Positions 3,048 to 26,919 of a stretch of 64,000 nucleotides of DNA are shown here, piece after piece. Location: the IMG/VR virus record IMGVR_UViG_3300025483_000873; one strand, written 5' to 3'. The notes below the pieces were generated by a model. That model was not told where the DNA came from. It did no database searches and was given only the letters and a program-made list of their open reading frames with translations. This DNA comes from a virus. The stretch's first letter is position 1. Each line of letters begins with the position of its first letter. The position numbers and the translations under genes are program-made.

Positions 3048-3076
3048 TTGACACATCTAAATAGTTATGGTATACT
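3048..3076 (+). promoter_or_regulatory. sigma70 early promoter with embedded late-promoter core CTAAATA (3057-3063)
   Basis: TTGACA-17 bp-TATACT immediately upstream of the riboswitch-like element. Confidence 0.85.
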
Positions 3077-3084
3077 AATACCAT

Positions 3085-3125
3085 CGTTCATCCGAGAGAT
3101 CGGACGCAAGTAAGTCGCGGAACGG
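3085..3125 (+). ncRNA. glutamine-II (Downstream-peptide)-like riboswitch aptamer, copy 1
   Basis: P1 CGTTC/GAACG, linker A, hairpin TCCGA-GAGA-TCGGA, CGCA, GGAACGG; lies upstream of a YRG-motif peptide, the known context of this motif. Confidence 0.75.
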
Positions 3126-3128
3126 AGC

Positions 3129-3309
3129 CGTTCATCCTATGTTAGAAATATTATTCTATTCAACACTCACCTGCCAACAAGCTGATACAATCATGCTTAA
3201 GATGAAAGCAAATGAGAATATCTCAAATGCTTTTAAGGTAGAGTTGATAGAGACCGTTAAGGAATCTACACCTGAGTGTATATGGGACGCACACGACTGA
3301 AGGAACGGG
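3129..3309 (+). ncRNA. glutamine-II-like aptamer, copy 2, split by an ORF in the P2 loop
   Basis: 5' half CGTTCATCCT (3129-3138); 3' half GGGACGCA-CACGACTGA-AGGAACGGG (3284-3309). Confidence 0.55.
3139..3300 (+). CDS. 53-aa hypothetical protein nested in aptamer 2
   Basis: MLEILFYSTLTCQQADTIMLKMKANENISNAFKVELIETVKESTPECIWDAHD*; GGAG at 3124-3127; not in the ORF track. Confidence 0.7.
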   Translation: MLEILFYSTLTCQQADTIMLKMKANENISNAFKVELIETVKESTPECIWDAHD

Positions 3310-3344
3310 GATTAAAACCCTCTATTACTTTAGGAGTAACTACA

Positions 3345-3512
3345 ATGAACACACTGCAAATGATCAAGAAGCAGATCAACAAGGCATCTGCACTTCACGA
3401 CGCACAAGTTCTTCACACTGCATACCGTGGTGTTGAGTACAATACACGTTGTGTCGAGTCGAAAGAAACACACGGTACATTCTGTTATCGTGGTAAAACA
3501 TACAGTAAGTGA
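3345..3512 (+). CDS. DUF4278-like 'downstream peptide'
   Basis: AGGAG SD; two YRG motifs (TAYRGVEY, FCYRGKTY). Confidence 0.8.
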   Translation: MNTLQMIKKQINKASALHDAQVLHTAYRGVEYNTRCVESKETHGTFCYRGKTYSK

Positions 3513-3529
3513 TCTACTTGTAAATAATC

Positions 3530-3555
3530 AGAGGGGTTGCACCCCCTCTTTTTTT
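3530..3555 (+). terminator. Rho-independent terminator
   Basis: AGAGGGG/CCCCTCT stem followed by a T run. Confidence 0.85.
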
Positions 3556-3607
3556 ATGCTAAAATACTAAAGGTATACAAAAGAATAAAAATGTGTTATA
3601 ATAACTT

Positions 3608-11489: not shown

Positions 11490-12203
11490 ATGGCATTACC
11501 AAAACTTGGCGTACCTACGTATGAACTTACGTTGCCTTCTACCGGGAAAACTGTAAAATATAGACCATTTCTCGTTAAAGAAGAAAAAGTACTACTTTTA
11601 GCATTAGAATCTGATAATGAAAAAGAAGTAATTACTGCTGTAAAGAACACACTGCGAGCATGTGTATTATCTAGAGTAAAAGTTGATCAACTACCATCAT
11701 TCGATCTGGAGTACCTATTTCTTAAGATTCGTGCTGCTGCTGTCGGTGAAGTTATCGAGATGACGGTAACTTGTAATGATGATAACGAAACTCAAGCAAA
11801 AGCATCAATCAATATTGATGAGGTTGAAGTGAAGAAAGATGATGAGCATAGTAGAAAGATTATGCTTACAGACGATATGGGGATTATGCTCAATTATCCA
11901 AGTATGGATAGATTTATTGAATCGCAGTTTCTCAACAAAGATTTAGATCCAGAGCATATTTTCAACTTTATTGCTGAACATATTGAGCAAATTTTTGATG
12001 GTGAAGATGTATATGATTCTACAACTACCACAAAGAAAGAGTTTCGTGAGTTTGTTGAGGGGTTGACTAGCAGACAGTTTGAAGAAATTCAAAAGTTCTA
12101 TGAGACTATGCCTCGCTTGACACACACATTTAGTGTGACCAATCCTAACACTGGTAATGAATGTGAGTATACTATTGAGGGATTGCAAAGTTTTTTCGCA
12201 TAG
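11490..12203 (+). CDS. gp26: baseplate hub subunit gp26
   Basis: MALPKL..PTYELTLPSTGK.VKYRPFLVKEEK...DLEYLFLKIRA...IEGLQSFF. Confidence 0.92.
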   Translation: MALPKLGVPTYELTLPSTGKTVKYRPFLVKEEKVLLLALESDNEKEVITAVKNTLRACVLSRVKVDQLPSFDLEYLFLKIRAAAVGEVIEMTVTCNDDNETQAKASINIDEVEVKKDDEHSRKIMLTDDMGIMLNYPSMDRFIESQFLNKDLDPEHIFNFIAEHIEQIFDGEDVYDSTTTTKKEFREFVEGLTSRQFEEIQKFYETMPRLTHTFSVTNPNTGNECEYTIEGLQSFFA

Positions 12204-12220
12204 CAGTCTTCCAGAATAGT

Positions 12221-12388
12221 TTGGAGGGCTATTACAAGACTAACTTTGCTTTGATGCAGTACCATAAATACTCTTTGACGGAGATTGAACACCTCATACC
12301 GTGGGAAAGAGAAGTTTATACTGCTCTTCTAATTCAACATATTCAAGAGGAAAAGAAAAAAGCAGAGGAAGCAAAGACTCGTAGATGA
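12221..12388 (+). CDS. gp51: short gp51-like baseplate hub assembly ORF (possibly made as a frameshift fusion with gp26)
   Basis: LEGYYKTNFALMQYHKYSLTEIEHLIPWEREVY; not in the ORF track; no clear SD/ATG start. Confidence 0.8.
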   Translation: MEGYYKTNFALMQYHKYSLTEIEHLIPWEREVYTALLIQHIQEEKKKAEEAKTRR

Positions 12389-25349: not shown

Positions 25350-25433
25350 GGGGCGGTGGCGGAATCGGTAGACGCACCAGACTTAAAATCTGTTGAGCAT
25401 ATGCTCGTGAGAGTTCAAGTCTCTCTCGCCCCA
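25350..25433 (+). tRNA. trnL: tRNA-Leu(TAA)
   Basis: Acceptor GGGGCGG/TCGCCCC, D-loop GGTAGAC, anticodon loop CT-TAA-AA, long variable arm, GTTCAAG T-loop; no encoded CCA. Confidence 0.95.
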
Positions 25434-25735: not shown

Positions 25736-26252
25736 TATATTTAATGAATGGTTTGAGGGAACGTGGGAAAATAAAGTTCAGGCATTTTCATATCCTTCAA
25801 AGTTTGCTATGGTCCGTCTGGTCCATAAAAAAATCCAGGGTACAGAATCAATGTACTATGGTGAGCAAGCATATAACTATTCGGTAGACTCACCTTATCG
25901 TCAATTTATTGTAGAAGCAATAGAAGACAATGGGTCAATACGAATAAAAAACTATGATTTTGATAAAAACTTCCATCTGGGGTTTAAAAATTTAGAATCT
26001 CGTCCTGAAGGGTTGACTCATAAAGAGTTTTGTGATATAATGTTTACATTCGACGGTGATTCATTCCAAGGTTCACTCCAAGGATGTAGTTGTTACGTCG
26101 AATGGCAAGATCAAGTAACCTATATCAAAAATGATATCTTTCTATCGAAAGAACAATATAATGTAGTTGATAGAGGTTATTTGGTGGATACCGACAAACA
26201 AGTTTGGGGTGGCAAACACGGTCACTTCAAATTTTTAAAGACGCCCCTGTAG
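25728..26252 (+). CDS. cpeT: CpeT/CpcT-like phycobiliprotein lyase
   Basis: F.G.W.NK.QAFS.P...YGEQAY.Y....PYRQ...FQG...GC.C...DRG...WG. Confidence 0.85.
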   Translation: MIDIFNEWFEGTWENKVQAFSYPSKFAMVRLVHKKIQGTESMYYGEQAYNYSVDSPYRQFIVEAIEDNGSIRIKNYDFDKNFHLGFKNLESRPEGLTHKEFCDIMFTFDGDSFQGSLQGCSCYVEWQDQVTYIKNDIFLSKEQYNVVDRGYLVDTDKQVWGGKHGHFKFLKTPL

Positions 26253-26314
26253 CTCAGCGGTAGAGCAGTGCTTTTGTAAAGCAAAGGTCATCAGTTCAAA
26301 TCTGTTCGGGGGCT
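26243..26314 (+). tRNA. trnT: tRNA-Thr(TGT)
   Basis: Acceptor GCCCCTG/CGGGGGC, GCTC/GAGC D-arm, loop TT-TGT-AA, GTTCAAATC. Confidence 0.92.
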
Positions 26315-26335: not shown

Positions 26336-26857
26336 ATGAAATATCAAATTTTTGACAACTATATGCCTGCAGGTTGGCATTCCGAACTGTGTGAGATGGT
26401 TATCAAAAATCCAATGTTTCAATGGTTTGATAGTACCGTTTTAGAAAAAGAATCTGCGGTTGAAGATAAGTATAATCAACATTTTGTGCATATCTTATAT
26501 AAAGAAATGCAAGTTAAGAGTTATGCTTTTGAGTTCTTTGAACCATTGTTTAAAAAACTCAAGGTCGATATGATCTATAGATCTCAACTTAACATGACAT
26601 TATGTACTCCAAAAATACGTGAATATGGTTACCATATTGACAATTATATTGATAATGATTATATGAAATACTGTAAGACAGCAGTATATTATATCAATAC
26701 ATGTGATGGATATACTGGATTTGAAAGTGGTGAGAAAGTTAATAGTGTTGGTAATCGCTTGGTATCATTTCCCAGTGATTTGAGGCATACAAGTACAACA
26801 ACTACTGATACTAGATCGAGATATGTAATTAATATTAATTACTTTGGTGGCGTGTAG
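26336..26857 (+). CDS. 2OG-Fe(II) oxygenase-like protein
   Basis: GYHID...TAVYYINTCDGYT.F...NRLVSFP...H...RYVININY. Confidence 0.8.
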   Translation: MKYQIFDNYMPAGWHSELCEMVIKNPMFQWFDSTVLEKESAVEDKYNQHFVHILYKEMQVKSYAFEFFEPLFKKLKVDMIYRSQLNMTLCTPKIREYGYHIDNYIDNDYMKYCKTAVYYINTCDGYTGFESGEKVNSVGNRLVSFPSDLRHTSTTTTDTRSRYVININYFGGV

Positions 26858-26919
26858 CACAATGGCAGTGCGAGGAGCTGTTAACTCCTAGGTTGCAAGT
26901 TCGAGTCTTGCCACGCCAG
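26848..26919 (+). tRNA. trnN: tRNA-Asn(GTT)
   Basis: Acceptor TGGCGTG/CACGCCA, AGGAG/CTCCT stem with CT-GTT-AA loop, GTTCGAG. Confidence 0.93.

Follow-up and report, generated by a model that had tools for sequence, protein, structure and literature searches.

Crossed glutamine riboswitch repeats predicted to fold around a small protein gene in cyanomyoviruses

Riboswitch aptamers are usually treated as compact 5′-leader domains of 50–200 nt that fold before the coding region. The characterised glutamine riboswitches are translational ON switches located upstream of DUF4278 genes (PMC6212724), in which ligand binding removes a strand masking the ribosome site (PMC6212724; PMC6698751). Glutamine-I RNAs (RF01739), for example the Synechocystis gifB/IF17 leader (PMC6212724), consist of P1 (CGUUC/GAACG), P2, an E-loop (CG(N)AAGUA...GAAG) and P3. 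Glutamine-II RNAs (RF01704) are found in marine picocyanobacteria upstream of DUF4278 peptides, and their crystal form is itself a strand-swapped dimer (PMC6698751). Published work also mentions glutamine riboswitches in a methylophage and in genomes of cyanophages, and a 99-nt glnA match in S-CREM1 has the length of the short interlocked units described below.

Here we describe the leader of a small transcription unit in a 64-kb stretch of viral DNA, the whole of which is referred to as the window. In its architecture the layout represents a new variant among glutamine riboswitches; it is found widely in cyanomyoviruses, and standard scans overlook it. Full-text literature searches for a gene inside an aptamer, or for interlaced repeats, found neither. 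The reading that we prefer, with a probability of roughly 0.6, is a crossed-repeat glutamine riboswitch whose P3 arm encloses one gene (ORF1) and which acts as an ON switch for a second (ORF2).

The locus shares with glutamine-I RNAs the P1, P2, E-loop and P3 elements, a long-range pair between C and G by P1, and a position just upstream of a small gene, here one with a sub-threshold DUF4278 match, for which translational ON control would be expected. It differs in that P3 would hold a second full copy of the binding core, with strands swapped with those of the first, in that an inner helix encloses a 53-codon gene, in that the long-range pair is C-G instead of G-C, and in that the version in the window falls below the Rfam threshold. 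With glutamine-II RNAs (PMC6698751) it shares the ligand core, comprising the CGUUC:GAACG helix, the CGC strand in the groove, the C19:G41-type pair as C-G, and GGAACGG. However, there is no P2 helix enclosing GGAACGG, no match to RF01704 was found in the window at E ≤ 10, and the inner core would amount to a circularly permuted version in which a loop of 3–4 nt closes the helix. Tandem aptamers (glycine riboswitches and the tandem glnA RNAs, PMC2864571) also place two cores on one leader, which may sharpen the response. The cores here, in contrast, appear to be interlaced, and are not adjacent, independently closed domains. Group I and group II introns carry homing-endonuclease or maturase ORFs in their peripheral loops, and resemble this locus in having a functional RNA fold with a helix that closes around a complete protein gene. 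Those RNAs are, however, ribozymes whose ORFs serve mobility or splicing, whereas the RNA described here would be a metabolite sensor on an mRNA, and the start and stop codons of ORF1 form part of the sensor helices. As in MS2 long-range control and leader-peptide attenuation, transit of a ribosome would remodel a helix hiding a downstream ribosome site, but ORF1 encodes a conserved protein under purifying selection and the competing structure is a putative ligand-binding aptamer.

On the preferred reading, the sensor forms only by pairing of segments that lie ~150–220 nt from each other on either side of a translated gene. Sensing of the ligand, folding during transcription and the movement of ribosomes would thereby be tied together on one RNA, a situation that current models do not cover. 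Because standard family scans miss the layout, riboswitch content is under-annotated in the several hundred cyanophage genomes that carry the unit, and phage glutamine riboswitches counted as tandem may be one interlaced structure. The arrangement would link the nitrogen status of the infected cell, in the form of glutamine, to early expression of a small-protein family and of an IF17-like peptide (the ORF2 product), which is possibly a glutamine synthetase inhibitor. It also offers a system in which designs based on cooperative or strand-swapped aptamers can be tested directly.

Organization of the transcription unit

The window is from a T4-like cyanomyovirus with relatives in the Kyanoviridae, and thyX and phoH lie downstream of the ORF1/ORF2 unit. 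This unit is self-contained, with a promoter, two repeats carrying glutamine riboswitch anchors, ORF1, AGGAG, ORF2 and a terminator in that order (Table 1). Transcription is expected to start near 3083, two bases before P1, and a single early phage transcript of ~470 nt (~3083 to 3555) would carry the whole sensor together with both ORFs. Metatranscriptome contigs of relatives span ~3102–3565 and carry neither transcript ends nor levels; they were therefore set aside as evidence for expression. One such contig, from a relative in run X5 with a loose end at window position 3278, reads CGACTAAAGGAAC. In this contig ORF1 ends in UAA, and AAAG replaces GAAG as the E-loop strand.

Table 1. Coordinates of the leader, its predicted pairing elements and the two ORFs in the window
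Feature	Position	Strand	Basis or remark
Sigma-70-type promoter	3048–3076	+	TTGACA, 17 nt, TATACT; 11/12 matches, TG before -10
a1, CGUUC, outer P1 5′ strand	3085–3089	+	Predicted to pair with 3303–3307; covariation and Rfam alignment in ORF-less relatives
P2 hairpin, UCCGA-GAGA-UCGGA	3091–3104	+	Third pair covaries
Core 1, CGC (ligand-contacting strand) and AAGUA (E-loop 5′ half)	3105–3112	+	Role of CGC from PMC6698751
P3 5′ strand, AGUCG	3113–3117	+	Predicted to pair with CGACU 3294–3298; invariant
Inner hairpin P3a	3120–3133	+	GAACG 3120–3124, loop GAGC, CGUUC 3129–3133; covaries, in MFE fold
P3b 5′ strand, UCCUAUGU	3135–3142	+	Contains ORF1 start codon 3139–3141; covariation and MFE
ORF1, 53 aa, phrog_504 / T4-GC_430	3139–3300	+	ORF call, phrog match, isolate annotation, dN/dS, structure model
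P3b 3′ strand, AUAUGGGA	3280–3287	+	Also encodes the ORF1 Trp codon; fourth pair covaries
Core 2, CGCACA, second copy of CGC ligand strand	3288–3293	+	Role of CGC from PMC6698751
P3 3′ strand CGACU and E-loop 3′ half GAAG	3294–3302	+	ORF1 stop UGA 3298–3300 lies across both
Candidate OFF-state helix	3297–3333	+	CUGAAG 3297–3302 with CUUUAG 3328–3333; MFE, RNAalifold
a′2, GAACG, outer P1 3′ strand, and G3308	3303–3308	+	G3308 is the long-range C-G partner (PMC6698751)
ORF2 Shine-Dalgarno sequence, AGGAG	3332–3336	+	Sequence; tail comparison
ORF2, 55 aa, phrog_545 / T4-GC_937	3345–3512	+	Weak DUF4278 (IF17-like) match
Intrinsic terminator	3530–3556	+	Strong; also delimited as 3530–3549; ends the ~470-nt unit

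A possible NtcA box (GTA-N8-TAC) at the promoter was rejected; by eye, the GTA...TAC spacing in the window is 6, not 8. The same region contains a perfect inverted repeat (ATGGTAT-ACTA-ATACCAT, 3067–3084), centred on the -10 hexamer and ending just 5′ of P1. Palindromes of at least 6 bp were found at this place in 94 of 137 distinct relatives, with arms such as AGGTCTA/TAGACCT, GTATGGTA/TACCATAC, TGTGATG/CATCACA and AAGACAGT/ACTGTCTT. As arms at the same place differ in sequence, they covary, and the palindrome could act as a DNA hairpin at the promoter or as an RNA hairpin on read-through transcripts.

When the window was searched against Rfam at gathering thresholds, only tRNAs were detected; three tRNA genes lie at 25350–25433, 26243–26314 and 26848–26919. 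Two related contigs contain PhotoRC-II RNA (RF01717) with scores above threshold, at 12140–12235 on the minus strand of L168 (75 bits) and at 1021–1116 on the plus strand of L093 (57 bits).

Pairing of the two repeats

The first-pass annotation of this stretch had described two aptamers with the same anchors, and each anchor was indeed found in both repeats. The sequence CGTTCATCC occurs in the 64-kb window only at 3085–3093 and 3129–3137 (chance expectation 0.23), GGACGCA at 3102 and 3285, and GGAACGG at 3119–3125 and 3302–3308. Nucleotides named as ligand contacts in PMC6698751 are present in both repeats and kept across hundreds of phages, and the equivalents of C1:G40, G2:C39, G18 and C19:G41 of the glutamine-II structure are intact in both. 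This version is predicted to bind glutamine, at one site or at two.

To compare the pairing in relatives, we used a DNA pattern for the 3′ core, which fetched ~200 viral loci and which fixed core 2 and a′2 for most of them. In the P2 hairpin, which follows CGUUCA, the third pair of the 111 distinct units was CG in 83 and AU, GC and UA in 8 each, so that all four Watson-Crick types are represented. In the crossed fold the first CGUUC (a1) pairs with the last GAACG (a′2), and the two middle strands (a′1 and a2) pair with each other; 99.0% of cells in the 111 units were paired in this way. The inner a1:a′2 pair was CG in 102 units and UA in 9, with none unpaired, and the inner a′1:a2 pair was GC in 90 and CG in 20. 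When each repeat was instead folded on its own, 21 and 22 of the 111 units were unpaired at the inner P1 pairs, whereas the crossed pairs were kept. All four combinations of the two inner pairs occur. Thirteen units have CAACG/CGUUG as middle strands and still have CGUUC/GAACG as outer strands, eight have the outer pair changed as well, to CGUUU/AAACG, and in one the outer pair alone is changed. Only a few evolutionary events may lie behind these informative changes, with U-A arising in one lineage and C-G perhaps in one to three events. The inner pair that varies is the equivalent of C5:G36 in the glutamine-II structure, and that pair and just one other in the core are given there as not conserved (PMC6698751).

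Relatives without ORF1 were aligned to RF01739, for which the gathering score is 35 bits. The model aligned one aptamer across both repeats, with scores of 46.4 bits (L179) and 43.6 bits (L093). In these alignments P1 is formed by the first CGUUC and the last GAACG, AAGUA is taken from repeat 1 and GAAG from repeat 2, and P3 is AGU...ACU around an insertion of ~40 nt. The E-loop strands flanking P3 in the window (AAGUA, 3108–3112; GAAG, 3299–3302) are likewise in different repeats, and both are present only if the repeats are read together. The best RF01739 match in the window was repeat 1 alone (27.7 bits). P3 itself (AGUCG/CGACU) was 100% paired but invariant, in a sample partly fixed by the search pattern; its strands being almost invariant, P3 was rejected as a case of covariation and counted as conservation only.

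Covariation of the P1 strands, together with the Rfam alignment in relatives, therefore indicates that the repeats are interlocked, in a strand-swapped manner. The proposal in the first-pass annotation that the second repeat is an independent aptamer was not borne out, since such pairing is broken in 21–22 of 111 units and the covariation fits crossed pairing. In our reading, the RNA contains two binding cores that have exchanged their 3′ strands, and ORF1 sits in the inner arm. In the window all four P1 strands are the canonical CGUUC/GAACG, and the crossed fold is predicted there from its relatives; side-by-side folding is possible as an alternative conformer.

ORF1 and the helix around it

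On sequence criteria, ORF1 is a real protein-coding gene. Its dN/dS (NG86) is 0.24–0.28 and its codon-position entropies are 0.85, 0.45 and 1.18 (84 distinct 53-codon alleles), and among 156 alleles its length ranges from 51 to 65 codons with whole-codon changes only. It is annotated as hypothetical protein T4-GC_430 in ACG-2014i, S-BM3, S-MbCM25 and S-RIM44. AlphaFold, with 59 sequences, modelled the product as three helices with a pLDDT of 83; confidence was low for the C-terminal ten residues, whose codons lie in the sensor core. With Foldseek, no PDB structure matched this model at E ≤ 0.001, and no family for ORF1 was found in Pfam. We considered whether ORF1 might be a regulatory leader peptide or uORF, and rejected this on the basis of its dN/dS, its membership of the phrog_504 family, its paralogs and the confident helical model. 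A Shine-Dalgarno-like GGAG (3124–3127) lies in the closing pair and loop of P3a. GGAG was found upstream of ORF1 in 135 of 156 ORF-bearing units, compared with one of six short units (Fisher 4e-4, phylogeny ignored).

The ORF had earlier been placed within a helix loop of the aptamer, with its ATG abutting the 5′ helix strand, its TGA in the core, and its C-terminal WDAHD encoded by aptamer nucleotides. Most of this description was confirmed. The coding ORF is enclosed by the UCC/GGA helix, which covaries across it; the TGA consists of the last base of the P3 3′ strand and the GA of the E-loop GAAG; and WDAHD (3283–3297) is encoded by UGGGACGCACACGAC, which makes up the helix 3′ strand, the CGC core and P3. 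The location given for the ATG was also correct, but rather than abutting the helix strand it lies inside an 8-bp helix formed by U3135–U3142 and A3280–A3287, two G-U pairs included.

The same layout was found in 279 phage records covering at least 80% of 3083–3345, and in ~150 distinct metagenomic viral loci, where insert lengths differ by multiples of 3. Isolates with the unit include S-RIM2, S-RIM44, Syn19 and S-BM3. In nearly every locus the ORF1 ATG is 10 nt (rarely 11) after the C of CGTTCA. The exact junction sequence of the layout is all but absent from 185,579 genomes of prokaryote species, with six matches that look like phage-sized or mis-binned contigs. These six (L222–L227) are in assemblies labelled as Synechococcus MAG (193,981-bp contig), Nonlabens xiamenensis (188,235-bp contig), and Verrucomicrobiales and Euryarchaeota MAGs; most likely, contigs of cyanophages were binned with cellular genomes or assembled together with them.

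In several relatives (L093, L201, L179, L173 and others) a tetraloop hairpin takes the place of ORF1, while the flanks and ORF2 are unchanged. Examples of these hairpins are CCC-UUCG-GGG, UCCAG-GAAA-CUGGA and UCCGUC-UUUG-GACGGA. Covariation of the UCC/GGA stem across the ORF, proposed earlier as a check, was seen when relatives were aligned. The fourth P3b pair is CG in 84 of the 111 distinct units, UA in 19, UG in 6 and other in 2, so that the base just 5′ of the ORF1 AUG covaries with a base ~145 nt downstream. UCCC pairs with GGGA and UCCU with AGGA, and TCCC and AGGA were never found together; wobble variants occur, the UCCU/GGGA of the window among them. Complementarity within loci was 5.19 bp, compared with 4.35 ± 0.07 bp in between-locus shuffles. 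In one locus (L103), the ORF ends early and yet a non-coding UGGGA is retained. The MFE fold of 3083–3350 (z -3.97) contains both the inner hairpin and the helix across ORF1.

P2 also encloses an ORF in ~29 lineages, in this case of 65–75 codons, with its AUG after CGUUCAUCN and its stop codon overlapping (G/A)GACGCAAG. The closing pairs of these P2 ORFs covary (UCUUAUG/CAUAAGA, UCUCAUG/UAUGAGA and UCC/GGA). By hhalign, the P2 ORFs, ORF1A (the type in the window) and ORF1B, whose stop codon is the UAG in the P3b 3′ strand, are homologous with probabilities of 85–98.8%, and all share a hydrophobic N-terminus and two cysteines ~36 residues apart. P2 ORFs are present in the IMG/VR loci L158, L159, L161, L162, L168, L098, L103, L130, L149, L185 and others, and their transcripts would have a leader of only ~12 nt before the AUG.

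Some loci contain remnants of the unit. The whole first repeat is absent from L208, L210, L215, L216 and L218, where CGTTGA is immediately preceded by the end of a different gene. L148 has its upstream ORF fused to an ORF1-like sequence, which terminates at the second core.

Expression platform and regulation

The ORF2 product gave a weak match to PF14105 (DUF4278; 21 bits, E 4.5e-4, cut-off 25.3). Upstream of ORF2, CUGAAG can pair with CUUUAG (3328–3333), which shares two bases with the 5′ end of the ORF2 Shine-Dalgarno sequence, and a small GGG/CCC hairpin lies inside the helix. The CUGAAG strand comprises the end of P3, the ORF1 stop codon and the E-loop GAAG. The helix is present in the MFE fold (z -3.97) and, as CUGAAG:YUUYAG, is the RNAalifold consensus of 50 diverse tails, where it is kept in 49–50. 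The only changes are C/U opposite two G's (GC 30 / GU 20 and GC 39 / GU 11). YUUYA is found right before the GG of the Shine-Dalgarno sequence in 110 of 114 distinct tails, and also in ORF-less relatives. Both this helix and P3 thus have an invariant partner strand and one-sided changes, with no compensatory ones. The conserved helix fits a glutamine ON switch of the kind characterised elsewhere (PMC6212724; PMC6698751). We also considered whether the Pro-Glu codons of ORF1 (CCUGA) pair with the flank of the ORF2 Shine-Dalgarno sequence, and rejected this for lack of covariation, since S-RIM44 has CCAGA and an unchanged UCAGG.

These elements suggest the following mechanism. The two repeats of the glutamine core (CGUUC-A-hairpin-CGC ... 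GGAACGG) would fold crosswise rather than side by side, with outer P1 formed by the first CGUUC and the last GAACG. AAGUA of repeat 1 and GAAG of repeat 2 would form the E-loop and AGUCG and CGACU would form P3, the sum being a type-1 (glnA-type) aptamer. The P3 arm would then open to an inner junction bearing the GAACG-GAGC-CGUUC hairpin and the UCCUAUGU/AUAUGGGA helix around ORF1. In the unfolded sensor, CUGAAG would be free to pair with YUUYAG, which borders the ribosome site of ORF2. When the sensor is locked by glutamine, the same strand would be taken into P3 and the E-loop, allowing ORF2 to be translated.

The closed fold would also be expected to hinder initiation on ORF1, which would need ~3119–3154 to be single-stranded, including the inner hairpin with its GGAG loop and the 5′ strand of the enclosing helix. 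A ribosome stopped at the UGA (3298–3300) would cover P3, the E-loop and the 3′ strand of outer P1. As the GGAG, AUG and UGA of ORF1 all lie in sensor helices, ORF1 translation and the folded sensor are probably mutually exclusive, given the ribosome footprint. The earlier suggestion that translating ribosomes would melt the aptamer agrees with this. A ribosome terminating on ORF1 would also open the helix that sequesters ORF2, and the net logic could therefore be one of coupling rather than of a toggle. The AND-gate or attenuator-like design suggested earlier is thus a hypothetical one, and the sequestering helix might equally serve translational coupling. The directions in which ORF1 and ORF2 are regulated remain predictions. 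As a tentative extension, the RNA might be a two-site strand-swapped sensor that toggles two cistrons, ORF1 being on at low glutamine, and at high glutamine clamped while the IF17-like ORF2 is freed, with the aptamer-wrapped gene acting as a duplicating module. If this were true, cyanophages would carry a gene family physically packaged inside a metabolite sensor.

Other explanations were weighed against the crossed-repeat switch. It is unlikely that the leader contains two independent glutamine aptamers, each with its own P1 and sensing separately, with ORF1 in the P2 loop of the second. Each repeat does have CGUUCAUCC...GGACGCA...GGAACGG and 89 of 111 units can adopt either folding equally well, but in the remaining 22 the inner pairs would be C-C, G-G, U-C or G-A where the crossed pairs stay Watson-Crick. 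Nor could one repeat make a type-1 E-loop, as repeat 1 is without GAAG and repeat 2 without AAGUA. Single repeats score just under the Rfam thresholds, repeat 1 of the window as given above and repeat 2 of short relatives at 34.4 bits on RF01739 and 25.9–28.1 bits on RF01704 (threshold 33; second hairpin with non-canonical pairs); the crossed alignment nevertheless scores higher despite its ~40-nt insertion. An improbable alternative is that insertion of ORF1 broke an ancestral riboswitch, whose halves persist as ORF1 leader or C-terminal coding sequence and as ORF2 operator, with glutamine no longer sensed. The covariation across ORF1 argues against this, having no coding reason, as do the non-coding UGGGA of L103, the retention of a non-coding core 2 where ORF1 stops earlier (UAG in the UAGGA of P3b), and the conservation of all ligand contacts in both repeats. 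These set against it, it remains true that the five loci without a first repeat and L148 with its fused ORF are clear remnants, that a long-range fold over ~140–190 nt is kinetically demanding, and that the version in the window was undetected by Rfam at the gathering threshold.

It is well established that translation of an upstream gene can open long-range helices, as in the coat-replicase coupling of RNA phage MS2, and this precedent bears on a further explanation. Ribosomes ending at the UGA in CUGAAG might melt the helix so that ORF2 expression simply follows that of ORF1, glutamine modulating only the frequency of ORF1 initiation. We consider this doubtful. The ORF1 stop codon does form part of the conserved sequestering helix, in its 5′ strand, and GGAG is enriched where the ORF is present. 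However, the helix is retained in short relatives that have no ORF1, where something else must open it; coupling would be less direct for ORF1 versions ending at the earlier UAG, which lies 11 nt 5′ of CUGAAG; and coupling alone leaves the retention of two complete ligand cores unexplained.

Two further features were noted. In 33 of 157 distinct tails (including L194, L168, L169, L174 and L206), an extra element, ACGGAUCC-hairpin-GAGAAGGUUAA, lies 3′ of the sensor, after the last GAACGG and before the ORF2 Shine-Dalgarno sequence. Its hairpin covaries (AGC-GAAA-GCU, CUGC-GUAA-GCAG and CACC-GAAA-GGUG), and it resembles a third, partial repeat of the 3′ half; it is absent from the window and has no Rfam match. 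In addition, GUUCAU (3086–3091, and again at 3130–3135) is the exact complement of AUGAAC (3345–3350), the start and Asn codons of ORF2. This pairing is used in the MFE fold, Met-Asn is conserved in relatives of ORF2, and both Asn codons can pair.
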